NCBI RefSeq assembly: GCF_000179635.2
Contig: NC_014833.1
Span: 630,001 to 662,000, forward strand
Direction: 5' to 3'
Source: Ruminococcus albus 7 = DSM 20455
GTDB lineage: Bacteria > Bacillota > Clostridia > Oscillospirales > Ruminococcaceae
Length of the DNA: 32,000 nucleotides
Part shown: piece after piece, positions 4,086 through 25,465 of the stretch
Position numbering within the stretch: the first letter of the stretch is position 1
How the letters are laid out: every line of letters begins with the position of its first letter
Translations under genes and position numbers: made by a program
The notes under the pieces: model-generated
The model's input: only the letters and a program-made list of their open reading frames with translations
Database searches by the model: none
Told to the model about the DNA's origin: nothing

Positions 4086-5921
4086 ATGAAAGCATATTTT
4101 AAAAAGATACTTAGCCTTGTAACGGCAGGCATTATAACTGCCTCCGCACTGCCTTTTGTAAGTGCACAGGCTAAGGACGTATCCTCCATGACCGCTGTGG
4201 AGATAGCTAAAGATATGGGTCTTGGCTGGAACCTCGGCAATACACTTGAAGCCCATGACGGTACTAACCACAAAAAGATGGGTCTTGAATCCGAGACCTT
4301 CTGGGGCAATCCCAAAGCTTCAAAGGCACTTTTTGATGCCGTTAAGGCAAAGGGTTTCAGGACTATACGTATACCCGTCACCTGGTATCCCCATGCAGAT
4401 GCAAATTACAATATCGACACCGCATGGATGAACAGAGTAAAACAGGTAGTCGATTGGGCTGTGGATGAGAATACATACGTTATACTCAATATCCATCACG
4501 AGGAATGGAACACCCCCACCAATGCCAACTACGCAGCTGCTTCAAAGGAGCTGAAAGCTTTCTGGAAACAGATAGCCACCGAGTTCAGGGATTATGACCG
4601 TCACCTTATATTTGAGGGCATGAACGAGCCCCGTAATTACGGAGGTGCACATGAGTGGGACGGCGGTACCGATGATATGCGCAAGGTGATAAACAAGCTT
4701 GATAAGGATTTCGTGGATACCGTAAGATCAACGGGCGGAAAAAACAAGACACGCTGCCTGATGATACCTACCTATGCCGCAAGCTCCACTACCGTTGCGA
4801 TGCGTGCACTCAGCATACCCGATGACCCTAATGTCATGGTATCCATACACGCCTATTCACCTTATAATTTCACAATGAATACAGGCAGCGGTGCCACAAG
4901 TGTATTCGGCAGCGCTCAGGAAAATGAGCTCAAACAGCTGTTCAATAATATCAACAGTATCTTCCTCTCCAATGGCAAGGCTGTTGTTATAGGTGAGTTC
5001 AGTTCTTCAAACAAGAACAATACCGATGAGCGCGTCAAGTGGGCTAAAAGCTATGCAACGCTTGCAAAGCAGAAGGGTATACCGATAGTGCTCTGGGATA
5101 ATAACTCTCCCAAGGATAATTACAATAACGGTGAAGGTCATGGTTATATAAACAGAAAGACCCTCGCGTGGTACAGCACCGCTGAACCTGTTGTAGATTC
5201 TCTGGTCAAGAATTATTACGGCAGTTCTGTTTCAAAGACCGACCTCAGCAAATGCAAGGCTGTCCTTTCACAGACTAAGTACTTCTATGACGGCACTCAG
5301 CATAAGCCCTCAGTCACTGTTACCTACAACGGCAAGACCCTGACAAACGGTACCGATTATACCGCAGCTTACAGCGGCGGTAAAGCTATAGGTACGGGTA
5401 CTGTCACCTTGACGGGCAAGGGCAGCTATACCGGCACTGTAAAGCTGACATTCACAGTCGCTGAAAAGACCATAGGTGATTGCAAGATAACTCTTTCGCA
5501 GAATTCATATACATATGACGGCAATGAACACAAGCCTGCCGTTACAGTCACCTTTGAGGGCAAAAGGCTCAATGAGGGCAGCGATTACACTATCGCATAC
5601 GAAAACTGCAGGAATATAGGTGATGCATACGTCACAGTTACCGGTACAGGCTCATTCAAGGGCTCATCTAAAGTCAGATACTGTATTGATCCTGCCGATC
5701 TTTCGGGCTACAAGCTTGGTGATGTCAACTTCGACAGTAAGATAACTGTTACCGATGTCACACTGACCTCAGCACAGGTAAAAGCTAAGATATTCATGTC
5801 GGAAAGCCGCCGCAGAGCAGCAGATATCAACGGGGACGGCAGGGTGAATGTTTCGGATCTATCCCTTATGGCAGCCCATGTAAAGTCCAAAAAGAGCCTT
5901 CCCGACAAGAATATAGCTTGA
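4086..5921 (+). CDS. Glycoside hydrolase family 5 endoglucanase (cellulase) with signal peptide, two Ig-like modules and a C-terminal type I dockerin
   Basis: The signal peptide is MKAYFKKILSLVTAGIITASALPFVSAQA. GH5 signatures are present: GWNLGNTLEA, IRIPVTW, FEGMNEPR (acid/base Glu in NEP) and VVIGEFSS (nucleophile Glu). The C-terminal dockerin has two Ca-binding segments, GDVNFDSKITVTDV and ADINGDGRVNVSDL. Confidence 0.9.
   Translation: MKAYFKKILSLVTAGIITASALPFVSAQAKDVSSMTAVEIAKDMGLGWNLGNTLEAHDGTNHKKMGLESETFWGNPKASKALFDAVKAKGFRTIRIPVTWYPHADANYNIDTAWMNRVKQVVDWAVDENTYVILNIHHEEWNTPTNANYAAASKELKAFWKQIATEFRDYDRHLIFEGMNEPRNYGGAHEWDGGTDDMRKVINKLDKDFVDTVRSTGGKNKTRCLMIPTYAASSTTVAMRALSIPDDPNVMVSIHAYSPYNFTMNTGSGATSVFGSAQENELKQLFNNINSIFLSNGKAVVIGEFSSSNKNNTDERVKWAKSYATLAKQKGIPIVLWDNNSPKDNYNNGEGHGYINRKTLAWYSTAEPVVDSLVKNYYGSSVSKTDLSKCKAVLSQTKYFYDGTQHKPSVTVTYNGKTLTNGTDYTAAYSGGKAIGTGTVTLTGKGSYTGTVKLTFTVAEKTIGDCKITLSQNSYTYDGNEHKPAVTVTFEGKRLNEGSDYTIAYENCRNIGDAYVTVTGTGSFKGSSKVRYCIDPADLSGYKLGDVNFDSKITVTDVTLTSAQVKAKIFMSESRRRAADINGDGRVNVSDLSLMAAHVKSKKSLPDKNIA
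5247..5696 (+). repeat. Two tandem ~75-aa beta-rich modules inside the cellulase (5247-5471 and 5472-5696)
   Basis: The two segments align residue for residue: SKCKAVLSQTKYFYDGTQHKPSVTVTYNGKTLTNGTDYTAAYSGGKAIGTGTVTLTGKGSYTGTVKLTFTV versus IGDCKITLSQNSYTYDGNEHKPAVTVTFEGKRLNEGSDYTIAYENCRNIGDAYVTVTGTGSFKGSSKVRYCI. Confidence 0.8.
5712..5893 (+). other. Type I dockerin module (cellulosome targeting)
   Basis: Duplicated EF-hand-like D-x-N/D-x-D-G-x-(I/V)-x-x-x-D segments, each followed by a helix, at the extreme C-terminus of the GH5 ORF. Confidence 0.85.
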
Positions 5922-14179: not shown

Positions 14180-14737
14180 GTGAAAAAATATGCTGTGTAT
14201 CGGTCTGCCAACGGTCTGTACTGCTATGAGTACCATGACAGCCTTGATACACTTAAAGGTACTATGTTTGAGACTGTTATCAAGGAAGAACAGCTCCCCG
14301 TAGTGCTGGACGGAAGCGGCGGTTACTTTTCTTTCAAGAAGGATGACTACAATTTTGTCAAGGTCATCGAATCAGACAAGAAATATCCTCTCCCGCTGGA
14401 GAAGATGTTTTTGAAGAACGATGATAACTTCAAGCTGGGGTGGATGTCACCTCAGGGCGATACCTATTCCTGCGACTATACCAACCACAACAGATGTGCC
14501 ATAATGCTGGCAGATAAGTTCGTACCCGGAGCGAAATTCCCTGAAAGAGCTCTCGGCAAGGCGGGTTGGATAAAAATAATAGACTCTTGGGACGGTACGC
14601 AGCGTCAGCATGGACAGTTCGTATATTCGCTGACGGGCAGGATAACCAAACAGCAGGCAGACAAGCTTTTTGATGTGGGGCTGTACTTTAATGAGGAAGT
14701 TCAGACCCTTATAAAGGATTGCGAGAACGATTGGTAA
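14180..14737 (+). CDS. Hypothetical protein (185 aa)
   Basis: GTG start preceded by GGAGGGGGGA. It has a globular-looking composition and its own promoter and terminator. I recognise no family motif. Confidence 0.55.
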   Translation: MKKYAVYRSANGLYCYEYHDSLDTLKGTMFETVIKEEQLPVVLDGSGGYFSFKKDDYNFVKVIESDKKYPLPLEKMFLKNDDNFKLGWMSPQGDTYSCDYTNHNRCAIMLADKFVPGAKFPERALGKAGWIKIIDSWDGTQRQHGQFVYSLTGRITKQQADKLFDVGLYFNEEVQTLIKDCENDW

Positions 14738-14743
14738 GATATA

Positions 14744-14772
14744 CGCTCACTGGGCGACAGTGGGCGTTTTTT
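14744..14772 (+). terminator. Rho-independent terminator
   Basis: Stem CGCTCACTG (14744-14752) / CAGTGGGCG (14758-14766) with one G-U pair. The T-run is 14767-14772. Confidence 0.75.
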
Positions 14773-15192: not shown

Positions 15193-15221
15193 TTGACAAT
15201 TATGAAAAAAAGCTTTATACT
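15193..15221 (+). promoter_or_regulatory. SigA-type promoter for the DivIVA-like/hydrogenase-like unit
   Basis: TTGACA (15193-15198), a 17-nt spacer, then TATACT (15216-15221). This gives a leader of about 100 nt before the ATG at 15329. Confidence 0.6.
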
Positions 15222-15328: not shown

Positions 15329-16396
15329 ATGGCGGAAACCAGATTTATCAAGACGGTAGAGTTCGGCGGCTATGACAGAGATGACGTTATCAAGAGATTT
15401 GAATTTCTGAACTCTCAGCTGTTTGACCTTAAAAATGAACTGCGCGAAACAAAGCTGCTCATGGAGGAATACAAGAAAGGTTCGTCCGAGGAAAAGGCTC
15501 ATGAGGCTGTGCTCGGTCAGGAGAGAGTCAAGCTGACCAGTCTGCAGGTACAGAATGAAACAGCTTCGGCTAAGCTGAAGGCTTCCGAGGAAGATAAAGC
15601 TAAGCTCTCGGAGGAGCTTGTGGCGCTGAAGGCTGCTCACGCAGAGGCAATGAAGGAACTGGAGGATGTCAAGTCAAAGCTGAACGCTTATGAGTCTGAC
15701 AATGAGGCGAATGCGCTCAGCCAGGTGTTTATTGCTGCACAGGCTTCCGCAACAGCAGTAGTTGCAAATGCTAACAAAGAAGCTGATGAGAAGAAGGCAC
15801 AGACAGAAGCGCTCGTTAAAGAGATGATCGACGATGCGAACCACACTGCTGCCGAGATAGTATACGAGGCTGAAAAGAAGGCTGCCGAGACTGATGCTGA
15901 AACAAAGAACGCATCCGAGAAGATGAAGGTGGCTTCCAATAACCTCAGAGCTTCCATGCTCGCAGAGGTAGAGGGTCTTAATGAACAGATGGCTGCACTC
16001 AGCGAAGTGTTCAAACTTATAAAGGAAAAGAGTACCGAGGCTGAGAACATCCTGAAGACCACTGAAGACAAGCTTAACGAGGGCGGTGTGCCTGAATTCA
16101 AGATACCTGAAACTTTTGAAGCTGAACTCCCTGATGCGCCCGAGCCGAGAAAGTCTGCTGAGGAGACCAAGAAGTCCAATGCAAGACTTGAAGAACTGGC
16201 TAAGATGGCAGCATCCATCGGCGGCGACAAGGGCAAGTCCGAAAAGGGTGATGAGGAAAAGTCAGAGGAAGAAGCTTCTGAAAAGACCGATGATAAGTCC
16301 GGTGAGAAGGCTGCCGACAAAAAAGATGACGGCAAAAAATCGGGCGGCGTAGACCTTGCCGATCTTATGAAGCAGGCTAGTGCATTGAAAAAGTAG
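15329..16396 (+). CDS. DivIVA domain-containing coiled-coil protein with acidic/lysine-rich tail
   Basis: The N-terminus FIKTVEFGGYDRDDVIKRFEFLNSQL fits the DivIVA motif F-x5-(R/G)GYD-x-(D/E)-(D/E)V-x2-F. Long heptad-like coiled coil follows. The C-terminus is low complexity (KSEKGDEEKSEEEASEKTDDKSGEKAADKKDDGKK). The RBS is AGGAGG. Confidence 0.7.
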   Translation: MAETRFIKTVEFGGYDRDDVIKRFEFLNSQLFDLKNELRETKLLMEEYKKGSSEEKAHEAVLGQERVKLTSLQVQNETASAKLKASEEDKAKLSEELVALKAAHAEAMKELEDVKSKLNAYESDNEANALSQVFIAAQASATAVVANANKEADEKKAQTEALVKEMIDDANHTAAEIVYEAEKKAAETDAETKNASEKMKVASNNLRASMLAEVEGLNEQMAALSEVFKLIKEKSTEAENILKTTEDKLNEGGVPEFKIPETFEAELPDAPEPRKSAEETKKSNARLEELAKMAASIGGDKGKSEKGDEEKSEEEASEKTDDKSGEKAADKKDDGKKSGGVDLADLMKQASALKK

Positions 16397-16439
16397 TTAT
16401 CGGCTGCTGCGATAATAATTGGTAAGGAGTGTATTCATT

Positions 16440-18125
16440 ATGAGCGAACTGATAATAACCAGACCTGACAAGTGCGTGGGCTGTAATTCATGCGTAAGAT
16501 CATGTCCTGCACCTGAGGCAAATATAACCAAGATGCTGGAGGGCGGCAAGTTTGTAACTACCGTCAATCCTGACCGCTGCATAGGGTGCGGATCATGCGT
16601 AAAAAGCTGTAACCACGGTGCCAGAGATTATATCGACGACACTGAGGAGTGCATGACAAGGATGAAGAGGGAAAAGATAATCATACTGGCTGATCCCTCT
16701 ATCAAGACAGGATTCCCTACGAAGTGGAAGGGTATACTCGACTGGTTCCGTAAGCAGGGCTGCATGATATACGATGCATCCTTCGGTGCGGATATCTGCA
16801 CATGGGCTCACCTGAGAGCAATAGAGCAGAAAAAGGTCGGCAATATAATAACACAGCCCTGTGCTGCCATAGTAAAGTATGTAGAGACATATCAGCCCAA
16901 GCTGCTGGCTAACCTGTCTCCCATACACAGCCCTGTTTCCTGCAGTGCTGTATACATCAAGAAGTATCTGAACAGGAATAACCCCATAGCAGTGCTGTCT
17001 TCCTGCATAGCTAAGAAATTCGAGGCTGAGGAAACAGGTCTTATTGATTTCAATGTAACTTTCAAAAAGCTGAATGATTACTTTGAGAGAAACGGTATAA
17101 CCATACCCGTATCCAGCACTGAGGATTATGAATACAAATTCGATGACCAGCAGGGTCAGGTGGGCGCTATATACTCACGTCCCGGCGGACTGAGAGATAA
17201 TATCTGGCTGCACAACCAGGATATAAACATCACAACATCCGAGGGTGCACAGAAGGTGTTCCCCGAGCTTGATATGTATGCTGAGATGCCTGACTTCAAG
17301 CACCCTGAGATATTTGATGTGCTTTCATGTGAATTCGGCTGCAACCTGGGACCCGGCGCAAGCACGAACCAGACAATGTTCGATGTTATGCTGACCATGA
17401 AGGAAGTTGAGAATGAGGCTAAGAGCCGCCGTAAATCAGGATTTATGGGCAGAGGCGACGACAAGATGCTCAAGAAGTTCGATGATGAACTGAAGCTCAA
17501 TGACTTCCTCAGAAACTACAAGCCCGTTACTCCTACACCCGTACCTACGGAAAGACAGCTGGATCCTATATACGAAAGCATGGGCAAGCATACCGAGGAT
17601 GACAAGAAGTACGATTGTCATGCCTGCGGACACAGATCATGCCGCGATATGGCTATAGCTATATACAGAGGTCTGAATACACCTGATAACTGCGTGGTAC
17701 ACGCAAAGACTGTCATGGTGGCAAGACACAGCGAACTGGCTGAACAGCATGAGAAGCTGGCAGAGATCACCTATGAATGTCTGGAACTTTCGGATAAGCT
17801 GAAAGCGGATGTTGACAATATACTCAAGAATATGGAGACTATCGGTGATTCTACTGCGAAGACCAGTGAGAGAGCCGATGTTGTAAGGAATCTGCTCACC
17901 AATGTAGTTGCATTCTGCAACGATAATCCTACTATGGATTCGGGCAGTGTCAGCCAGCTGATAAACATACTCGAAACTACCATAGATGCTTTCAGCGCAC
18001 TTGATGACAATGTTAATGTGACTAATGAGAGTTCGGGACTTATCAATAACTCCATCGGTGAGATAACCAGGCTTGTTGAGGAGATAAACAATACTCTCCA
18101 CAAGGCGAGCGAAAAGAAATCATAA
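16440..18125 (+). CDS. [FeFe]-hydrogenase-like protein, sensory (group C/HydS-like) type, with C-terminal coiled coil
   Basis: Two ferredoxin motifs are present, CVGCNSCVRSCP and CIGCGSCVKSCN. H-cluster-like motifs are ITQPCAA (versus TSCCP), SSCIAKKFE (versus MPCxxKxxE) and SCEFGCNLGPG (versus CxxGCxxGGG). There is an exact Cx2Cx4Cx16C motif (CHACGHRSCRDMAIAIYRGLNTPDNC), followed by about 130 aa of coiled coil. I chose the ATG at 16440, 10 nt after AAGGAG, over the TTG at 16419. Confidence 0.7.
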   Translation: MSELIITRPDKCVGCNSCVRSCPAPEANITKMLEGGKFVTTVNPDRCIGCGSCVKSCNHGARDYIDDTEECMTRMKREKIIILADPSIKTGFPTKWKGILDWFRKQGCMIYDASFGADICTWAHLRAIEQKKVGNIITQPCAAIVKYVETYQPKLLANLSPIHSPVSCSAVYIKKYLNRNNPIAVLSSCIAKKFEAEETGLIDFNVTFKKLNDYFERNGITIPVSSTEDYEYKFDDQQGQVGAIYSRPGGLRDNIWLHNQDINITTSEGAQKVFPELDMYAEMPDFKHPEIFDVLSCEFGCNLGPGASTNQTMFDVMLTMKEVENEAKSRRKSGFMGRGDDKMLKKFDDELKLNDFLRNYKPVTPTPVPTERQLDPIYESMGKHTEDDKKYDCHACGHRSCRDMAIAIYRGLNTPDNCVVHAKTVMVARHSELAEQHEKLAEITYECLELSDKLKADVDNILKNMETIGDSTAKTSERADVVRNLLTNVVAFCNDNPTMDSGSVSQLINILETTIDAFSALDDNVNVTNESSGLINNSIGEITRLVEEINNTLHKASEKKS

Positions 18126-18165
18126 AATACAGCCCGTACTTCAGGGCGGAAAGGCAAGGTGAGTC

Positions 18166-18411
18166 ATGGCTTCAAAGGTCGCGGTCATAGCGATAATCAT
18201 TGAAAGAGGTTCTTCCGTGGAAGGCATAAACGGTCTTCTGCATGAGTACAGCGAATACGTTGTGGGAAGAATGGGTGTTCCTTACAGGAACAAGGGTATA
18301 AACATAATCAGCGTTGCTGTCGATGCTCCCGAGGAGACGATTGACGAACTTGCACGAAAAATAAACGCACTGGAGGGCATTTCGTCGAACACGGTCTGTT
18401 CGGTAGGATGA
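18166..18411 (+). CDS. TM1266-family putative iron-only hydrogenase system regulator (small ACT/NikR-C-like protein)
   Basis: 81 aa. The pattern VAVIAIIIERGSSVEGINGLLHEYSEYVVGRMGVPYRNKGINIISVAVDAPEETIDELARKINALEGI matches, from my memory of the TM1266/TIGR03959 family, its length and beta-alpha-beta layout. It sits directly after a hydrogenase-like gene. Confidence 0.65.
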   Translation: MASKVAVIAIIIERGSSVEGINGLLHEYSEYVVGRMGVPYRNKGINIISVAVDAPEETIDELARKINALEGISSNTVCSVG

Positions 18412-18421
18412 CACCGATAAC

Positions 18422-18466
18422 GGGCGGCTAAGACCTGCAATACTGCGGGACTTGCCGCCCATTTTT
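18422..18466 (+). terminator. Rho-independent terminator ending the DivIVA/hydrogenase-like/TM1266 unit
   Basis: GGGCGGC (18422-18428) pairs with GCCGCCC (18454-18460), with partial inner pairing. ATTTTTA follows. Confidence 0.6.
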
Positions 18467-18549: not shown

Positions 18550-18578
18550 TTGACATTATTATCAAATAGTGGTATACT
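18550..18578 (+). promoter_or_regulatory. SigA-type promoter of the six-gene kinase/vWA/PP2C/GGDEF operon
   Basis: TTGACA (18550-18555), a 17-nt spacer, then TGG-TATACT (18573-18578). A leader of about 135 nt follows. Confidence 0.65.
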
Positions 18579-18717: not shown

Positions 18718-19773
18718 ATGCAATGTGAAAGATGTAATGCCGAGCTGCCCCCGAATGCCATTGAATGCCCCGAATGCGGCGCGCCTGCTCCGCAGAATAT
18801 CGAAGGCTTTGATAATACCATTGAGATACAGCATATACTCAAGACAATAATGGAAAAACATGGCAGCATACTTATCAATGATCCGACACAGTTCGTTTCT
18901 ACACTTAACGATTACCTTAACGGCTACGAAAAGGAACGCAGGCTCCTAGTGAATGCCATGAGGGCAGGCGTACTGAAAAATATGGTCAAGGAAGAAAAGA
19001 CCAACAGGGAATACGCTCTGCTGAGTGCTAAGAGCTATATGATAAATGAACTTTTCGTATCGGAAAATGCCGCTGAGTTCGTACTTGCTTGCTTTACCTA
19101 CACTCTGGGCTGGCCCTATCAGTCTTCCATGACCAAGAAAGAGGAAGAAAAGAAGGAAGATGAGCCCAAGGATGAGGAGCCTGATGAGCCCAAGCTGAAG
19201 ATCGACAGCAAGATCTACAGGACATCGGATGCAGGCAGACACAGACTTGCAAGAAATATAGTTATCCCTGAGGGATTCACCAAGATAGACAGCTTCTGCT
19301 TTGACAGGTTCGGCTTTATGAGATCCATAACACTGCCTTCTACCATGATGGCGATAGGCGATTATGCTTTTGCTGAATGCAAGAACCTGAAAGGTATAGA
19401 GCTGCCGGCAGGACTTAAAGTCATAGAGCAGGGTGCTTTCAGCCAGTGCGGAAAGCTCGCTATGATAAAGATACCAAAGGGTATCCTTGAAATACCGGAT
19501 AATACCTTTGAGTTCTGCTCGAACCTTACTGTTGTAGATGTGCCTAATACTGTAAGCAGTATAGGCGTTGAGGCGTTCTCGGGATGTGAAAAGCTGGAAA
19601 AGCTGTTTTTGCCTGACAGCGTCAAGTTCATTGATAAAAACGCTTTCTCGTATTGTCCGCAGCTTACGATACGCTGCTATGTCAATTCATACGTTCATAA
19701 GTATTGCCTTACTTATAATATCGACTATGAGACAGTTGCGCAGGGCGTAGGTCTGAAGCAGAAACCAATATAA
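18718..19773 (+). CDS. Zinc-ribbon protein with helical middle domain and C-terminal BspA-type leucine-rich repeats (no signal peptide)
   Basis: N-terminal CxxC-x10-CxxC ribbon (MQCERCNAELPPNAIECPECGAP), then an acidic/lysine linker (KKEEEKKEDEPKDEEPDEPK). About six ~23-aa LRR_5-type repeats follow (e.g. SITLPSTMMAIGDYAFAECKNLKGIELPAGLKVIEQGAFSQCGKLAMIKIPKGILEIPDNTFEFCSNLTVVDVPNTVSSIGVEAFSGCEKLEKLFLPDSVKFIDKNAFSYC). Confidence 0.8.
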   Translation: MQCERCNAELPPNAIECPECGAPAPQNIEGFDNTIEIQHILKTIMEKHGSILINDPTQFVSTLNDYLNGYEKERRLLVNAMRAGVLKNMVKEEKTNREYALLSAKSYMINELFVSENAAEFVLACFTYTLGWPYQSSMTKKEEEKKEDEPKDEEPDEPKLKIDSKIYRTSDAGRHRLARNIVIPEGFTKIDSFCFDRFGFMRSITLPSTMMAIGDYAFAECKNLKGIELPAGLKVIEQGAFSQCGKLAMIKIPKGILEIPDNTFEFCSNLTVVDVPNTVSSIGVEAFSGCEKLEKLFLPDSVKFIDKNAFSYCPQLTIRCYVNSYVHKYCLTYNIDYETVAQGVGLKQKPI

Positions 19774-19797: not shown

Positions 19798-21141
19798 ATG
19801 GTTGAATTGAAGATCGGCCAGGAGGTCGAGATGGAATTCGGAGGCAGAGCAAAAGTCCTCAAGGTCATCGGCAGCGGTGGTCAGGGTATTGTTTACCTCG
19901 TGGAATTCAACTCCCAGAAATGGGCGCTCAAATGGTATGATGTTGATAAGATCAAGCGCCCCAAGGAGTTCAGACAGAACATCAAGAACAATATACAGGA
20001 CGGTGCTCCCAGCAATAAGTTCCTGTGGCCAAAGTATCTGACCAAGGAGAACGACCAGGGGACCTTCGGTTATATCATGGAGCTGAAGCCCGAAAGCTTC
20101 GATTCCTTCGTGGATATACTCAATACCTATAAGCTGGTCATCGATCCGCTGACAGGCAGAGCTGCAAAGCAGCCCGTAAGGTTCACCAGCCTTTATGCCA
20201 TGGTAACAGCTGTTATCAATATCGCGAATGCGTTCAGACAGCTCCACCGTGTTGGTAAGAGCTATCAGGACCTTAACGACGGTGGTTTCTTTATCAATGT
20301 CAATACCGGTGCAGTGCTCGTCTGCGACTGCGATAATATCGCACCTGACGGAAGCAACTTCGGTATAGGCGGTAAGCCGGGATATATGGCTCCCGAAGTA
20401 GTAAGAGGTATCGCTAAGCCTGATGTACAGACCGATAAGTATTCACTTGCTGTGGTACTTTTCAAGCTGCTGTTCAGAGGTGATCCTATGGAGGGTGAAA
20501 AGGTTGTCAAGGATGTATGCCTGACAGAATCCTCCGAGCTCAGACACTACGGACAGGATGCTGTGTTCGTATATGATCCCGACAATGCTACCAACAGACC
20601 TGTAAGAGGTATACATGACAATGTCATCAAGTTCTGGAGAATATACCCCAAGTACATAAGAGAAGCTTTCATACTCTCATTCACACAGGGTATAACCGAT
20701 CCGAACAAGCGTATAATCGAGAATGAATGGCAGAAGCTGTTTATTCGCCTGAGAAGTGAGATAATCATGTGCGTATGCGGCAGGACGAATTTCACTTCCA
20801 TGTTCTCAAAAGTTGATGAAAAGACTTTCCGCTGCCCCAAGTGCGGTGCTGAGTTCCTGACACTCGGTTTTGACAACAGGGATAACAGGATGCCTTTGTA
20901 TGTCGGATGCAGATTCTACAAGTGTGAGATCGATCCTGACTGCGATGATTTCCTGACCGTGGCGGGTGAACTGGTGGAGAACAAGCTGAAACCCGGTGTG
21001 CTCGGTATAAAGAACTGTACCGAGGATACATGGCAGGCTAAGCTCCCTGACGGAAAGTACTATCCCATACAGCCCGGTAAGGGCTTCCCGATCTGGAAGG
21101 ATCTTGAAGTCGACTTCGGTAAGGTCAAAGCCGGTATGTAA
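19798..21141 (+). CDS. Hanks-type Ser/Thr protein kinase-like protein with atypical catalytic loop and C-terminal zinc ribbon
   Basis: Kinase subdomains are recognisable: G-loop GSGGQGIVY, WALKW (A-x-K), HRVGKSYQDLNDGGFFIN (catalytic-loop equivalent), CDCDN (DFG equivalent), GKPGYMAPEV (APE) and DKYSLAVVLFKLL. The C-terminal part has CVCG-x19-CPKCG and an extra ~90-aa domain. Confidence 0.75.
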   Translation: MVELKIGQEVEMEFGGRAKVLKVIGSGGQGIVYLVEFNSQKWALKWYDVDKIKRPKEFRQNIKNNIQDGAPSNKFLWPKYLTKENDQGTFGYIMELKPESFDSFVDILNTYKLVIDPLTGRAAKQPVRFTSLYAMVTAVINIANAFRQLHRVGKSYQDLNDGGFFINVNTGAVLVCDCDNIAPDGSNFGIGGKPGYMAPEVVRGIAKPDVQTDKYSLAVVLFKLLFRGDPMEGEKVVKDVCLTESSELRHYGQDAVFVYDPDNATNRPVRGIHDNVIKFWRIYPKYIREAFILSFTQGITDPNKRIIENEWQKLFIRLRSEIIMCVCGRTNFTSMFSKVDEKTFRCPKCGAEFLTLGFDNRDNRMPLYVGCRFYKCEIDPDCDDFLTVAGELVENKLKPGVLGIKNCTEDTWQAKLPDGKYYPIQPGKGFPIWKDLEVDFGKVKAGM

Positions 21142-21173: not shown

Positions 21174-21989
21174 ATGAATAATAATCTGAATTCTGATGTT
21201 AAGGAAAACACCACAGTCGACGATCTGCTGGATTTCGATGACGATGATCCCCTGGGTGCGACTGCGGTATCTAAAAAGAGCCTCGTAATATTCTTCCTGA
21301 TCGATACTTCAGGAAGCATGAAGGGCAAGAAGATGGGTCAGCTCAATACCGTTATGGAGGAGCTTATACCCGAGATAAGAAAAGTCGGTGAGGCTGATAC
21401 CGATGTTAAGGTAGCAGTACTGACTTTTGACACTGATGTAAAGTGGATGTACTCCGCTCCTATCTCCATTGAGGATTTTGAGTGGGCAAGACTTGGTGCA
21501 CAGGGCGTTACAAGCATGGGTGCTGCATTTACCGAGCTGGCAGCCAGAATGTCAAGAAACAGCTTCCTGAATTCGCCTTCGCTGTCATTCGCACCTGTAA
21601 TGTTCCTGATGACAGACGGTTATCCTTCGGATGACTACAAGTCGGGTCTGAAGGCACTGCAGACCAACAGCTGGTACAAGTTCGGTCTGAAGGCTGCACT
21701 GGGTATCGGTGATGAGGCTAACGATGAGATGCTGGCTGAATTCACAGGTTCCAAGGAAACTGTTGTTCATGCTTACACAGGCGGACAGCTGGCTTCGATG
21801 ATCAAGATCATCGCGGTAACAGCTTCGCAGATAGGAAGTAAGTCGATGACGCTTTCCGATGAAACTAATGAGGAGCTCAGTGAGGAGGATGTATACGCTG
21901 CAAAGCAGAAGATGCTCGGTCAGCAGATACAGGAACTGGTAGGCGATCAGACGGACGGCAGTGACGTTCCTTACGATACGGGCTGGTAA
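21174..21989 (+). CDS. vWA domain protein (TerY-like) with acidic C-terminal tail
   Basis: MIDAS D-x-S-x-S in FFLIDTSGSMKGKKM. Further elements are TFDTDV, GVTSMGAAF and FLMTDGYPSDD. The tail SDETNEELSEEDVY...DGSDVPYDTGW is acidic. Confidence 0.85.
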   Translation: MNNNLNSDVKENTTVDDLLDFDDDDPLGATAVSKKSLVIFFLIDTSGSMKGKKMGQLNTVMEELIPEIRKVGEADTDVKVAVLTFDTDVKWMYSAPISIEDFEWARLGAQGVTSMGAAFTELAARMSRNSFLNSPSLSFAPVMFLMTDGYPSDDYKSGLKALQTNSWYKFGLKAALGIGDEANDEMLAEFTGSKETVVHAYTGGQLASMIKIIAVTASQIGSKSMTLSDETNEELSEEDVYAAKQKMLGQQIQELVGDQTDGSDVPYDTGW

Positions 21990-22022: not shown

Positions 22023-22928
22023 ATGTCTTTTAATGGCTTTAGCCAATCTGTTATGGGTGCCAGCCATGTGGCAAAGGGTATAGTTTGCCAGGACAGCTCG
22101 GCACACAAGATAACAGACCGTTACGCTATAGCTGTGGTGGCTGACGGTCACGGAAGCAAGAAACACTTTCGCAGCAACATAGGCTCGCAGTGCGCTGTTG
22201 AGGCTACTATCGAGACTATTGAAAGGTTCTATGAGAAAGCGGACGAGTTTGAAGCTAATATGCCAAAGAACCACAAGATGATAATCAGAAATATCGAAAG
22301 GCAGATAATCGCAACATGGAACAACAAGGTGATGAAGCATCTTGAGGAACATCCTGTTACGGCTGTTGAAAAGAAGCCCTTTACTCCCGAAGAGTTTGAA
22401 AACATCAATCCCGAGCAGTACTACGGTACTACGCTTATCGCTGCTGTTGCGGGTGTGGATTTCACTTTCGGTGTACAGATAGGCGACGGCAGCTTTGTTG
22501 CGATATTTGAGGACGGCGAGGCTATAATGCCCATGGAGTATGAGGAAGCGAATCCCGCCAACATAACATCCTCTATGTGCAACGCCAATGCAGCTTCGAT
22601 GTTTGAAAGTTTCTATGTAGACGACAAGCGTCTTATAGCGATGTTCTCATCTACCGACGGACTTTATACCTCCTTCGGAAGTGAGTACGACTTCAGGGAT
22701 TATCATGTGATACTGGCATCTCAGCTCAGCTCGCCTGTGCTCGAGGCATCGGTAGTAAAGAATATAACAAAAAGGTCTCATTTCGGTACAGAGGATGATA
22801 TATCCCTGGCTTGCGTATATGATGTTGAATTCGCGGCTGAGAAGGAACCTCTGCTGAAGGAAATGATAGACAGAAATAAGAGGCTTGCGGCTGAAAGAAA
22901 AGCAAAGCTTCATACCGCAAACTTTTGA
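22023..22928 (+). CDS. PP2C-family protein Ser/Thr phosphatase
   Basis: Metal-binding PP2C motifs are present: QDSS, AVVADGHGSKKH, QIGDGS, SSTDGLY and GTEDDISLACV. Confidence 0.8.
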   Translation: MSFNGFSQSVMGASHVAKGIVCQDSSAHKITDRYAIAVVADGHGSKKHFRSNIGSQCAVEATIETIERFYEKADEFEANMPKNHKMIIRNIERQIIATWNNKVMKHLEEHPVTAVEKKPFTPEEFENINPEQYYGTTLIAAVAGVDFTFGVQIGDGSFVAIFEDGEAIMPMEYEEANPANITSSMCNANAASMFESFYVDDKRLIAMFSSTDGLYTSFGSEYDFRDYHVILASQLSSPVLEASVVKNITKRSHFGTEDDISLACVYDVEFAAEKEPLLKEMIDRNKRLAAERKAKLHTANF

Positions 22929-22977: not shown

Positions 22978-23964
22978 ATGGATAAGAAAAAAGAAACCAA
23001 AAATTGGATAATTGTGATCGTAGGTATAGTAGCATATCTGTTATGCAGTGTATTACAGGCAATGCTGAGCCGTAAAGGTGCGATGGCAGCACAGGAAGCT
23101 GCTAAGAAAGCAGGCGAGGCAGCAAAGGCCGCTGTACAGAGCGGAAATAACCCGATAGCCGGTGTTATATCACAGATACAGGTCGTTGTAACAGTAGTTC
23201 TCGTACTGTTTGCTCAGAAGAAGGGCTTCATAACAGCTTTGGTACTGAATTCTATAAATACATTGTACACACTGATATTCCAGATGATCATTCCTGGCAG
23301 CACAAAAGCAATGCCCGGTGTTGTAGTAACACTGATCTCTATCGGTATCGCTTCGGTCATCTATTTTTACACAAGCAAGACAGAGAACATGAACGAGGAG
23401 CTCCAGAAGAGCTATCACGAGGCTATTGAACAGAATCGTATCATAGAGGAGCAGGGCGAGACCCTCAAGCACATGGCTTACTATGACAAGCTGACAGGTA
23501 TGCCCAACAGAGAGAGCTTCATGGAGAATCTTGAAAGACAGATCAGAAACAGCGGCGACTGTGTTATGATCTATATTGATCTGGACGATTTCAGACGTAT
23601 AAACGATAACTTCGGTCATGCAATAGGTGATGAACTGCTGAAGCAGTATTCCGAAAAGATCAAGAACTACTGCGGCGACAAGGCATTTGCAGCAAAGATC
23701 GGCGGCGATGAGTATGGTATCGTTCTCGGCAGCGGAATGACCAATGAGGCTATATACCAGTACGCTGCAGGTATAAGTGGTATCTTCGGCGATCCTATCA
23801 CTATGGGCGGTAATGTTTATACAGTTGCAGCAAGCTACGGTGTAGCAAGCTTCCCCGAGAGCGCTATGACAGCAGACGATGTATTCAGATGCGCTGAAAC
23901 TGCAATGTTCAACGCTAAGGAAAGCGGTAAGAACCAGCTTTGCTTCTACACTAACCGCGGTTGA
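22978..23964 (+). CDS. Membrane-bound diguanylate cyclase (GGDEF domain; motif GGDEY)
   Basis: About four N-terminal TM helices. The GGDEF domain has YYDKLTGMPNR, IYIDLDDFRRINDNFGHAIGDELL and the active-site loop AKIGGDEYGIVL. There is no RxxD I-site five residues upstream of the loop. Confidence 0.85.
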   Translation: MDKKKETKNWIIVIVGIVAYLLCSVLQAMLSRKGAMAAQEAAKKAGEAAKAAVQSGNNPIAGVISQIQVVVTVVLVLFAQKKGFITALVLNSINTLYTLIFQMIIPGSTKAMPGVVVTLISIGIASVIYFYTSKTENMNEELQKSYHEAIEQNRIIEEQGETLKHMAYYDKLTGMPNRESFMENLERQIRNSGDCVMIYIDLDDFRRINDNFGHAIGDELLKQYSEKIKNYCGDKAFAAKIGGDEYGIVLGSGMTNEAIYQYAAGISGIFGDPITMGGNVYTVAASYGVASFPESAMTADDVFRCAETAMFNAKESGKNQLCFYTNRG

Positions 23965-24004
23965 TTTTTAGGCAAGTTCACAGGAAAGGCAGTTGAATAC
24001 GATT

Positions 24005-25465
24005 ATGGAAATCAAGGAGCTTTACGATCTTGCGAAACAGTATGCTGAGCTTATAACAAATAATAAGCCCAATTATGTTTCGGAAAATGAGTCGGCTATA
24101 TGCGTTATAGTTGACAATAACGACCAGCCAATCACAGGTATCACCACTGTTACCGTAAGAGGCGGCATGGTCGAGGTTATCCCCGCAGAGACAGTTGCAG
24201 TAAAGAGATTTATCGATCACTGTGGTGATGCGCCTGCAAAATACATTGTTACAATGCTCTTCAAGAACTACGAGGTCATTGAGACAGGAAAGGTCAGCCT
24301 GCTTATGCTTGGACAGACCAATGCTGCCAACGGTGAATGCGTTGTTATGACCTCAGCTGAAGACAGTGTTAAACTGAAGGAAGTAGTACTTGTTTCGGCT
24401 GTAGATAAGTCATCTTCTTCCGAAGGTTCTCTTGTTGCAGAAGCTACTGCGGCAGCAGAAGAAGCACTTGCGGCTGGTGAAGCTCCTTCCGTTGAAAATG
24501 CGGCTGAACCCAGCATGGAAGACCTGATGAACGGCTTTGATGTTGATACTACTTCGACAGAACAGGCTGCATCTGAGCCAATGGGCGCACCTGCAGAATT
24601 TGCTGACGGATTCAGCGTAGATTCAAGTAATCCTTTCTTCGAGGAAGCAGCTACTGCTCCCGATTCTGAAGTTAAAACTATCGACAGCGGTGTTAAGTCA
24701 ATGTTTGACCAGCCCGAGGATGCTACAAGACAGGGCGCTGCAGGCTTCAATATCCCTCAGGGAGGTTATCCTCAGCAGGGAATGACAATGCAGGGCGGCT
24801 ATCCTCAGCAGGGCATGGGCTTCCCTCAGCAGGGTATGCAGCAGAGCGGCTATCCTCAGCAGGGCATGGGCTATCCTCAGCAGGGTATGCAGCAGAGCGG
24901 TTATCCTCAGCAGGGAATGCAGGCAGGCTATCCCCAGCAGGGTATGGGTTATCCTCAGCAGGGAATGCAGGCAGGCTATCCCCAGCAGGGTATGGGTTAC
25001 CCCCAGCAGGGAATGCAGGGCGGCTATCCCCAGCAGGGTATGGGCTATCCCCAGCAGGGAATGCAGCAGGGCGGCTATCCTCAGCAGGGCGCAGGTTATC
25101 CCCAGCAGGGAATGCAGGGTGGTTATCCTCAGCAGGGTACAATGTTTAATACCGGTACAACTACCACAGGCGGATTTCCTCAGGCAGGCGTAATGCAGTC
25201 CATGATGAAGATGCCCGGTGTAGGACAGACTTCGATACAGGTATCTGAGTCTGCAACATCTATTCCTGTAAGCCAGAACATCAAGTCTTTGAACACTGAT
25301 GAAATCTCAAAGTATTCATCAAGTGCAGCTGAGCCTGATGATGACGAAGATGAGGATGACGGCACTATGAGCAGAGAAGATATGCTCAAGGCTGCCAAGC
25401 AGAAAAAGAAGAATGCCAAGCTAAATGCCAACTTCAAAAAGAAGATGAGAGATTCAGGATTCTGA
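24005..25465 (+). CDS. Hypothetical protein: globular N-domain, acidic linker, 15 GYPQQGM repeats, acidic patch and basic tail
   Basis: A long ORF in the operon frame. The ATG is at 24005 (MEIKELYDL...), and an alternative TTG lies at 23993 as in the ORF track. I recognise no family. Composition changes sharply along the protein: an Ala/Glu/Ser linker, then a Q/G/P/Y/M repeat block, then [11 protein letters not shown], then [18 protein letters not shown]. Confidence 0.7.
24761..25141 (+). repeat. In-frame tandem repeat encoding 15 copies of G(Y/F)PQQG(M/A/T) with 0-3-residue spacers
   Basis: Read directly from the sequence: [127 protein letters not shown]. The copies differ at synonymous sites (tatcct/tatccc/tacccc; cagggc/caggga/cagggt). 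Confidence 0.95.

Follow-up and report, generated by a model that had tools for sequence, protein, structure and literature searches.

How does a signal leave a hydrogenase-like sensor protein that has no output domain of its own? The question was raised by Rumal_0577, a protein encoded in a 32,000-nucleotide stretch of the Ruminococcus albus 7 genome that we analysed as a whole (the window). Coordinates below are window positions, the features described between 14180 and 23964 all lie on the + strand, and residues of Rumal_0577 follow the numbering of the 561-aa protein. An earlier reading of the DNA letters (the original prediction) had described a sensory-type [FeFe]-hydrogenase-like gene in one unit with a DivIVA-like gene (Rumal_0576) and a gene for a TM1266-type protein (Rumal_0578), just upstream of a kinase/PP2C/GGDEF operon. 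We concluded that the best explanation of the locus, with a probability of roughly 0.55, is a sensor module of [FeFe] group C2 that has kept a tail only and has its output in a separately encoded partner.

We initially focused on the sensor module. The Rumal_0577 open reading frame (ORF) extends from 16440 to 18125 (561 aa), with its ATG at 16440 behind an AAGGAG ribosome-binding site. There is an alternative start at 16419, but the start at 16440 gives a product identical to the 561-aa database protein, and the L1-L3 fragment is found verbatim in the supplement of Greening et al. Two ferredoxin-type [4Fe-4S] motifs (C12, C15, C18, C22 and C47, C50, C53, C57; 16473-16610, Pfam Fer4 families) open the protein, and their eight cysteines were invariant in the 47 family members. 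They are followed by an H-domain (Fe_hyd_lg_C, 16734-17354; PF02906 at 84.9 bits against a cut-off of 22.1). The AlphaFold2 (AF2) model of this domain had a pLDDT of 80-96, and Foldseek matched the model to TmHydA, CbA5H and CpI with a probability of 1.0.

On alignment with the Thermotoga maritima HydA, the L1 motif T138-Q-P-C141 (16851-16862) fell on TSCCP, the L2 motif S187-S-C189-I-A-K192 (16998-17015) on MPCTAKK, and the L3 motif S296-C297-E-F-G-C301 (17325-17342) on MACNYGC. The four cluster-ligating cysteines that had been read in TQPC, SSC and SCEFGC were indeed retained (C141, C189, C297 and C301), and they were invariant in the family; K192 was nearly invariant, and the clade consensus of L2 is LSPCIAKK. 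Pro140 occupies the position of the proton-relay Cys (C299 of CpI), next to the retained ligand C141. This Cys-to-Pro exchange had also been predicted. The substitution is real, but it is not particular to Rumal_0577: the clade-wide L1 consensus is ISQPCP, with Pro in all the relatives fused to methyl-accepting chemotaxis protein (MCP), kinase or GGDEF domains too, so the exchange says nothing specific to this protein. In L3, where the clade consensus is DVLNCxxGCN, Rumal_0577 has a Leu at the Met497 position; at the Met353 position of the active site it has a Ser. Further downstream, the exact Cx2Cx4Cx16C motif of the original prediction (C393, C396, C401, C418; 17616-17693) was confirmed by a match to PF04060 (28.7 bits against a cut-off of 23). 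It marks a putative extra [4Fe-4S] site, its four cysteines are invariant in the family, and the motif is also present in TamHydS and TmHydS (PMC8163306). We observed no PAS, kinase, phosphatase or MCP domain at the Pfam thresholds; for PAS families, a search of the whole protein at E ≤ 0.01 and one of the tail at E ≤ 10 found none. Judged by its sequence, Rumal_0577 is a sensor-like module in which the cluster ligands are intact and the proton relay is disabled.

Would such a module carry an H-cluster and respond to H2? By analogy with the distant TmHydS and TamHydS, we expect that Rumal_0577 would incorporate an H-cluster and that H2 would be its signal. The main rival explanation reads the same residues differently. 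The Fe-S clusters of Rumal_0577 might sense O2, CO or the redox state of the ferredoxin pool in place of H2, or the protein might be a slow catalytic hydrogenase; the fold might be kept for cluster binding only, or the 2Fe subcluster might be absent, as in Nar1-like proteins. This would fit with the loss of the proton-relay Cys to Pro across the whole clade, with an H-domain that is only 18-22% identical to proven H-cluster enzymes in structural alignments, and with scores of ~50 bits or less to the A, B and C3 references. The C-terminal cluster of TamHydS was likewise unresponsive to H2 (PMC13104023), and so was the transcription of Rumal_0577. However, the four H-cluster cysteines and the equivalent of the cyanide (CN)-binding Lys are conserved over hundreds of diverged clusters, and the host makes active [FeFe] hydrogenases, so maturases must exist. 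TmHydS and TamHydS, which are more distant and also lack the relay Cys, bind the H-cluster and react with H2. We consider this rival reading unlikely.

We next placed Rumal_0577 among the [FeFe] hydrogenases. A published HydDB-based screening had assigned it and its R. flavefaciens orthologue to [FeFe] group C2, with the best match of Rumal_0577 at 84%; HydDB defines this group as 'chemotactic (putative)', acting via methyl-accepting chemotaxis proteins. We made our own comparisons by group over the L1-L3 fragment, using HydDB-labelled fragments. Identity was 70% to the R. flavefaciens C2 reference, 48-51% to the MCP fusions and 42-47% to the kinase/GGDEF fusions, and it was 26-30% to the references of A3, B, C3 (the R. 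albus HydS) and C1/D. The claim of a group C protein was thus borne out at the level of the broad class, by the published label as well as by the fragment identities. An exhaustive HMMER search returned 614 clusters at E ≤ 1e-30. The nearest proteins beyond the ~560-aa family were ~640-aa MCP-domain fusions, followed by HisKA/HATPase/receiver and GGDEF/EAL fusions. In most of the relatives the output domain is joined directly to the Fe-S module, without PAS, and the expectation that a PAS domain is the norm among them did not hold. The output-less ~560-aa proteins formed a clade of their own in a neighbour-joining tree. These comparisons support a position of Rumal_0577 within the putative sensory group C radiation. 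The class itself is not new, being already catalogued as C2, and by sequence the Rumal_0577 lineage is well separated from the only characterised sensory enzymes.

Two further observations were made on this set. In the tree, the Ruminococcus-type clade has a second one beside it, whose members (P0131, P0143, P0153, P0160, P0167 and P0256; ~530-585 aa) show no recognisable output domain either. The histidine-kinase-fused relatives were closer to C2 than to the C1/group D set.

The PAS-less architecture and the Ser/Leu substitutions also suggested group D (M2e), a group that is defined by two [4Fe-4S] sites, an H-domain and Cx2Cx4Cx16C in the absence of PAS, and by a Ser/Thr in place of Met353 (PMC8163306). 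Rumal_0577 would then be a TamHydS-like PAS-less sensory hydrogenase with a longer C-terminal helix. TamHydS (from Thermoanaerobacter mathranii; group D/M2e, which is HydDB C1) has the same domain order as Rumal_0577, with no PAS, two N-terminal [4Fe-4S] motifs, Cx2Cx4Cx16C and a helix at the C-terminus. Both proteins have lost the relay Cys and have Ser and Leu at the two Met positions, and in both the output is presumed to run through neighbouring genes. TamHydS differs in its length (435 aa, only ~30 residues past the last Cys) and in its L1, which reads SAC and not QPC. We took its coding sequence from the paper supplement, where it had errors of optical character recognition, and aligned segments only; over the first ~170 residues (169 aligned) it was ~24% identical to Rumal_0577. 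The HydDB C1/group D reference (E. callanderi) gave 26% over 42 residues (29 bits), compared with 42-51% for the fused clade, and no Ruminococcus was present among the 70 listed group D members. With identities this low we ruled this placement out as very improbable. As regards the names, WP_013379176.1 is labelled 'FeFe Group C1' in the supplement of PMC6776011 and is also in the 'group D' list of PMC13104023; since it carries both labels, HydDB C1 and group D/M2e appear to be the same set.

What, then, follows the Fe-S module in place of an output domain? We observed a tail of ~143 aa (17694-18122), which AF2 modelled as a helical hairpin (helices 419-495 and 501-558) at low pLDDT. The alignment available to AF2 was shallow (≥69% identity), hence the low confidence of the tail. 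Pfam and the AF2 model agreed with the original prediction in that there is neither a PAS nor an enzymatic output domain, and they gave the C-terminus as a helical hairpin. A search of this part for an MCP-signal fold had been proposed as a check, and its outcome was divided. In hhalign, the first 78 residues of the tail matched (probability 96%, E 2.3e-9) the helix with which the MCP fusions continue after their Fe-S site, so that the first helix is homologous. The MCPsignal domain and its tip were not there: MCPsignal scored 12-13 bits on the tail against a cut-off of 34.6, and 5 of 22 tails matched at E ≤ 1. As the Pfam MCPsignal model was uninformative, the homology of the tail rests on the profile alignment to the MCP fusions and applies to the first helix only. 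The MCP fusions have ~65 extra residues, including the canonical tip (QTNLLSLNASIEAARAGE...GFAVVA.EVR.LA), and the Ruminococcus family has nothing at this place.

The most conserved part of the tail is a family-specific turn motif, F492-C-N-D-N-P-T-M-D500 (17913-17939). F492 and C493 were invariant, N496, M499 and D500 were ≥90% conserved, and the pattern F-C-N-x-N-x-T-M-D persisted in homologues with 39-51% tail identity. Some 30 positions of the tail were invariant among the 47 family members, a conservation equal to that of the core. Going by the model and the alignments, the tail is a linker helix plus a return helix without the MCP tip. It is not decaying, and the conservation of the turn is the pattern expected of a docking surface. 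The protein may have arisen from a chemoreceptor fusion by deletion, or it may represent the ancestral form; the neighbour-joining tree cannot decide between the two. R. albus 7 encodes CheA, CheW, CheB, CheR and an MCP according to the published annotation table; with the tip missing, Rumal_0577 has no evident way into a chemoreceptor array.

The HydDB C2 MCP fusions (~640 aa; for example Treponema bryantii WP_022931679, P0128 and P0130) are the nearest relatives of the tail-only form outside its own clade. These proteins share with Rumal_0577 the L1/L2/L3 consensus, the Cx2Cx4Cx16C motif and a ~78-residue helix after the last Cys that is homologous to the tail, at an identity of 35-51%. They carry MCPsignal, whereas Rumal_0577 lacks the ~65 residues with the tip and has the family-specific turn instead. 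The tail-only form comes with a dedicated coiled-coil partner gene and a kinase/PP2C cluster, while three MCP-fused relatives whose loci we examined had neither of these nearby and were surrounded by unrelated housekeeping genes.

The partner gene, Rumal_0576, is an ORF of 355 aa at 15329-16396. It belongs to a family of 164 proteins that was found only in Ruminococcus/Oscillospiraceae and whose members are usually named 'plectin'. In the family alignment the N-terminus (MAETRFIKTVxFGGYD) hardly varied; behind it came a long coiled coil, a GGVPxF motif, a disordered linker rich in K and E and then a conserved C-terminal helix (DLxxLxKQAxxL). The AF2 model of Rumal_0576 placed long helices at 17-49, 53-123 and 127-251; the K/E-rich tail came out as disordered, and a last helix spanned 343-354. 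The label 'DivIVA-like' given by the original prediction applied at the level of the family and not to the copy in the window. Among 37 family members, 24 matched Pfam DivIVA (PF05103) and 31 matched NCBIfam NF050102 (DivIVA/Wag31), the best scores being 31.2 bits for PF05103 (cut-off 28) and E 6.4e-11 for NF050102. Rumal_0576 itself had no Pfam or NCBIfam match, and this included DivIVA when the E-value cut-off was relaxed to 1-10. Sequence and profile searches of the Protein Data Bank with the coiled-coil protein returned generic coiled coils only, and Foldseek found no structural match to the AF2 model. Like DivIVA/Wag31, the partner family has a short conserved N-terminal motif (F-x-x-x-x-F-G-G-Y-D) before a long coiled coil, the resemblance of FIKTVEFGGYD to the DivIVA N-terminus being one by eye only. 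The partner is twice the length of DivIVA and adds the GGVPxF motif, the K/E-rich linker and the C-terminal DLxxLxKQAxxL helix. Rumal_0576 is a real, conserved partner gene, and the profile matches speak for a DivIVA-like character of its family.

The C-terminal helix of the partner, GG(V/I)DL(A)xL(M/A)KQAxxL (at the C-terminus of Rumal_0576, 16240-16396), was duplicated two or three times in some orthologues. The repeated helix resembles a short docking or membrane-binding peptide.

To assess the neighbourhood, we took loci from 50 genomes, each of a different species, as well as from two further assemblies and from two metagenomic contigs, and searched them with the window proteins. The metagenome scan, made with distant tail-only relatives, brought up mostly unrelated Fe-S proteins through the ferredoxin-motif pattern; L055 and L056 were the useful loci. 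The DivIVA-like gene was directly upstream on the same strand in 47 of the 49 loci with enough upstream sequence, and the pairing extended to loci whose hydrogenase was only 53% identical. Of the two exceptions, L053 was an alignment artefact. The conserved core of the locus is therefore a two-gene unit of the sensor and the DivIVA-like gene.

The second feature of the neighbourhood is the downstream operon. Its first gene is Rumal_0579 (18718-19773), which encodes a zinc-ribbon and BspA-type leucine-rich repeat (LRR) protein (LRR_5, 125.9 bits). It is followed by Rumal_0580 (19798-21141), a Ser/Thr kinase with a C-terminal CxC...CxxC zinc-ribbon-like motif (Pkinase, 40.9 bits, cut-off 31.7); Rumal_0581 (21174-21989), a VWA-domain protein (VWA, 39.9 bits); Rumal_0582 (22023-22928), a PP2C phosphatase (PP2C_2, 119.1 bits); and Rumal_0583 (22978-23964), a membrane GGDEF diguanylate cyclase (GGDEF, 113.3 bits in Pfam; TIGR00254, 109 bits). 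The published annotation table lists Rumal_0575, 0578, 0579, 0582 and 0584 as hypothetical, 0576 as 'plectin', 0580 as a Ser/Thr kinase, 0581 as VWA and 0583 as a diguanylate cyclase.

We observed the LRR/kinase/VWA/PP2C genes in the fetched flanks of 37 of the 54 loci, in four arrangements: downstream on the same strand (12), upstream on the opposite strand (23, at ~5 kb), upstream on the same strand (1) and downstream on the opposite strand (1). The LRR gene of the Rumal_0579 type accompanied the kinase in 40 loci. Median identities across the loci were 81% for the kinase, 84% for VWA, 65% for PP2C, 69% for the sensor and 43% for the DivIVA-like partner. This linkage is the strongest contextual signal that we obtained. 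The adjacency to the kinase/PP2C operon, which the original prediction had pointed out, is accordingly conserved; the functional link, for which it had offered speculation, is still a matter of interpretation.

The operon resembles the TerY-P triad (Anantharaman et al. 2012, as summarised in PMC11090510) in having adjacent VWA, PP2C and Ser/Thr kinase genes, the kinase with a C-terminal Cys4 motif. The likeness rests on domain composition, and the VWA of Rumal_0581 could be placed at the level of the general VWA family. The R. albus triad differs in being preceded by the zinc-ribbon/LRR gene, in being followed by the GGDEF cyclase and a PQ-rich protein, and in lying near a hydrogenase-like sensor and not near Ter or restriction genes. 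These triads have been described as stand-alone switches tied to defence systems (PMC11090510), and this bears on a further explanation of the whole locus. The tail could be a decayed remnant of a chemoreceptor, the partner a general cytoskeletal or division gene, and the kinase cluster an unrelated TerY-P stress or defence module, all of them linked through shared ancestry. The linked loci all come from Ruminococcus/Oscillospiraceae, three loci with ≥5 kb on both sides (L003, L017 and L041) had no kinase cluster, and L056 had no partner. Nevertheless, the conservation of the tail equals that of the catalytic core, and its turn motif is invariant; the pair stays adjacent even though the partner has diverged to a median identity of 43%; the triad has remained within 10 kb through at least four rearrangements; and all the genes are expressed. 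We consider shared ancestry as the whole explanation to be quite unlikely.

We further examined the transcription signals of the unit. A promoter-like site at 15193-15221 (TTGACA-17-TATACT, 11 of 12 consensus matches) precedes Rumal_0576. It was among the two best in a 5-kb scan, and it was unchanged across six R. albus-group genomes in which the flanking sequence was divergent. The 43-nt spacer between Rumal_0576 and Rumal_0577 (16397-16439) had no significant structure in comparison with shuffled sequence (z = 0.19). An intrinsic terminator follows at ~18424-18464, with a GC-rich hairpin and then AUUUUU (dG -29.2 kcal/mol, z = -5.2; none of 200 shuffles folded equally well). A simple terminator scan had missed this hairpin owing to its long, structured loop. 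The single promoter and terminator around three ORFs, and the 43-nt gap without a convincing terminator, were thus reproduced as predicted. A second promoter-like site lies at 18550-18578, before the downstream operon (TTGACA-17-TG-TATACT, 11 of 12 matches). As it was perfectly conserved in four R. albus-group genomes, the sensor unit and the LRR/kinase operon would be separate transcripts.

Published RNA-seq data of R. albus 7 showed that Rumal_0575-0584 are all expressed, with normalised means of 195 for Rumal_0576, 293 for Rumal_0577 and 1263 for Rumal_0578. These data also covered the H2-dependent transcriptomics that had been proposed as a check. Expression was confirmed and a response to H2 was not: the Rumal_0577 transcript stood at 293 in pure culture and at 271 in co-culture. 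Such a constitutive level is compatible with a sensor and gives it no positive support.

The third gene of the unit, Rumal_0578 (18166-18411, 81 aa), is a clear member of the TM1266 family (PF21699, 83.9 bits, cut-off 27; TIGR03959, 88.7 bits, cut-off 60.8). However, TM1266 was present in only 4 of 47 loci, all of them close relatives of R. albus 7, and it was absent from R. albus 8 and from every R. flavefaciens locus. R. albus 8 has unrelated sequence in its place and has kept the terminator hairpin and the downstream promoter; the hairpin and its T-tract are also kept at this position in the relatives without TM1266. The three-gene arrangement of the original prediction is therefore not conserved, and the two-gene core is. 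In the few R. albus strains that have it, TM1266 is an accessory gene outside the conserved core. Two observations were made on the gene itself. R. albus 8 has a sequence like the TM1266 ribosome-binding site and start codon with no ORF behind it, and this residual start hints at a loss of TM1266 and not a gain. The TM1266 transcript was ~4x that of the hydrogenase-like gene (1263 vs 293), with no obvious promoter in the 40-nt spacer.

Taken together, the tail-only C2 module with its output in a partner would work as follows. H2, or a redox state set by H2, would act at the H-cluster of Rumal_0577. The change would be relayed to the hairpin via the C-terminal Fe-S domain. In a dimer, the hairpin probably forms a four-helix bundle. 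The hairpin would then alter its binding to a separate partner, for which the co-transcribed Rumal_0576 is the first candidate, and the LRR/Ser-Thr kinase/VWA/PP2C (TerY-P-like) cluster with the GGDEF cyclase would be the likely downstream output. We infer in this way both a physical interaction between the tail and a partner and a link to phosphorylation or to cyclic di-GMP (c-di-GMP).

Hydrogenases with an outside partner are known from other systems. The regulatory [NiFe] hydrogenase HoxBC-HoxJ is a hydrogenase scaffold reused as an H2 sensor that signals via a separate partner. It differs from Rumal_0577 in belonging to an unrelated metalloenzyme family and in having a PAS histidine kinase as its partner. 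DivIVA/Wag31 proteins, in turn, are classical substrates of bacterial Ser/Thr kinases, which makes an arrangement of kinase, scaffold and sensor plausible. HydS of group C3/M2f (T. maritima HydS and R. albus Rumal_3405) is, like Rumal_0577, a putative H2 sensor with the Cx2Cx4Cx16C motif, and Rumal_3405 works with a Ser/Thr phosphatase subunit, a parallel to the PP2C linkage at Rumal_0577. HydS has a PAS domain, though, and Rumal_3405 keeps the CC of L1 and is 26% identical to Rumal_0577. The cluster of this PAS-type HydS (Rumal_3404-3407) was ~100-fold lower in the low-H2 co-culture, whereas Rumal_0577 was constitutive. A more far-reaching version of our reading would make the sensor, the DivIVA-like scaffold and the LRR/kinase/VWA/PP2C/GGDEF cluster a single H2-responsive pathway, with the tip of the hairpin docking on the scaffold and the phosphorylation of the scaffold set by the kinase and PP2C. 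This extension we regard as doubtful.

Several observations weigh against an H2 sensor that signals through a partner, and they kept our estimate where it is. On the side of the sensor, we found no characterised member of the 'QPC' clade in the literature, and the characterised TmHydS and TamHydS are only ~24-26% identical to Rumal_0577, so that both the binding of an H-cluster and the sensing of H2 are extrapolated. We found no hydE/F/G maturase genes in the window, and none could be recognised in the published R. albus 7 annotation table. The transcripts of Rumal_0575-0584 were unchanged between the high-H2 pure culture and the low-H2 co-culture with an H2 consumer. In the tail, the return helix aligned weakly to the MCP hairpin (hhalign probability 45%), and the Pfam MCPsignal matches were no better than those to generic coiled-coil families. 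As for the partner, Rumal_0576 of the window matched no DivIVA model, its orthologues scored near the threshold of PF05103 (28-31 vs 28 bits), and the DivIVA profile matches spanned the central region (model 32-120), outside the N-terminal lipid-binding domain. A 56%-identical metagenomic homologue (L056) had no partner gene upstream. Finally, as all the linked loci belong to a single lineage of family rank, part of the counts reflects inherited synteny.

A few features around the unit should also be described. Upstream lies Rumal_0575 (14180-14737, 185 aa), a separate transcription unit with its own terminator (14743-14767) and with no Pfam or NCBIfam family match. Of 46 loci, 37 had it upstream of the pair, and its median identity was 64%, above that of the DivIVA-like partner. 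In co-culture it alone among the genes of the region changed significantly, though by little (1.34-fold, q = 0.0015). Behind the GGDEF gene lies Rumal_0584 (23993-25465, 490 aa), which has GYPQQGM-type repeats and an expression of ~1200 normalised units; a gene of this type accompanied the kinase cluster in many loci. In Ruminococcaceae bacterium FB2012 (L001 1-6595), nitrogenase-like genes and HypF/C/D/E were seen directly upstream of the pair. R. albus 7 has the same nitrogenase-like/Hyp set (Rumal_0543-0556) 20-35 genes upstream, though the published table lists no [NiFe] hydrogenase. We considered the HypFCDE/nitrogenase adjacency as a meaningful link and rejected it as coincidental, since the window and L002-L056 were without it except for L002, which is the same organism as L001. 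A GH5 cellulase with a type I dockerin (a cellulosome component) is encoded at 4086-5921, ~10 kb upstream, and is ordinary for R. albus.

The locus is unusual in three points: a 'chemotactic' protein has no MCP module, its hairpin has a private, conserved tip, and it is strictly linked to a DivIVA-like and a TerY-P-like gene set. In the literature that we searched, we found no description of a sensor of this kind linked to a DivIVA-like gene and a TerY-P-like triad, and the linkage to the DivIVA-like gene and the kinase suggests an undescribed route for passing on an H2 signal. Proteins of the Rumal_0577 type are counted as 'chemotactic' in hydrogenase censuses. As they have no chemoreceptor domain, this label is probably wrong for a large and abundant rumen clade. 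Ruminococci rank with the main sources of H2 in the rumen, and the H2 that they release feeds methanogens, while H2 sensing in ruminococci has so far been known by inference from one PAS-type HydS. The DivIVA-like protein, the kinase/phosphatase/VWA triad and the diguanylate cyclase are concrete candidate partners, and they bear on a question that applies to every PAS-less 'sensory' [FeFe] hydrogenase, namely how the signal leaves the protein. If the more far-reaching version of our reading is true, there would be a third route of H2 transduction besides the PAS-kinase/phosphatase sensors and the chemoreceptor fusions. In the rumen, the principal cellulolytic producers of H2 would then couple the ambient H2 to c-di-GMP, adhesion or the behaviour of the cell envelope.

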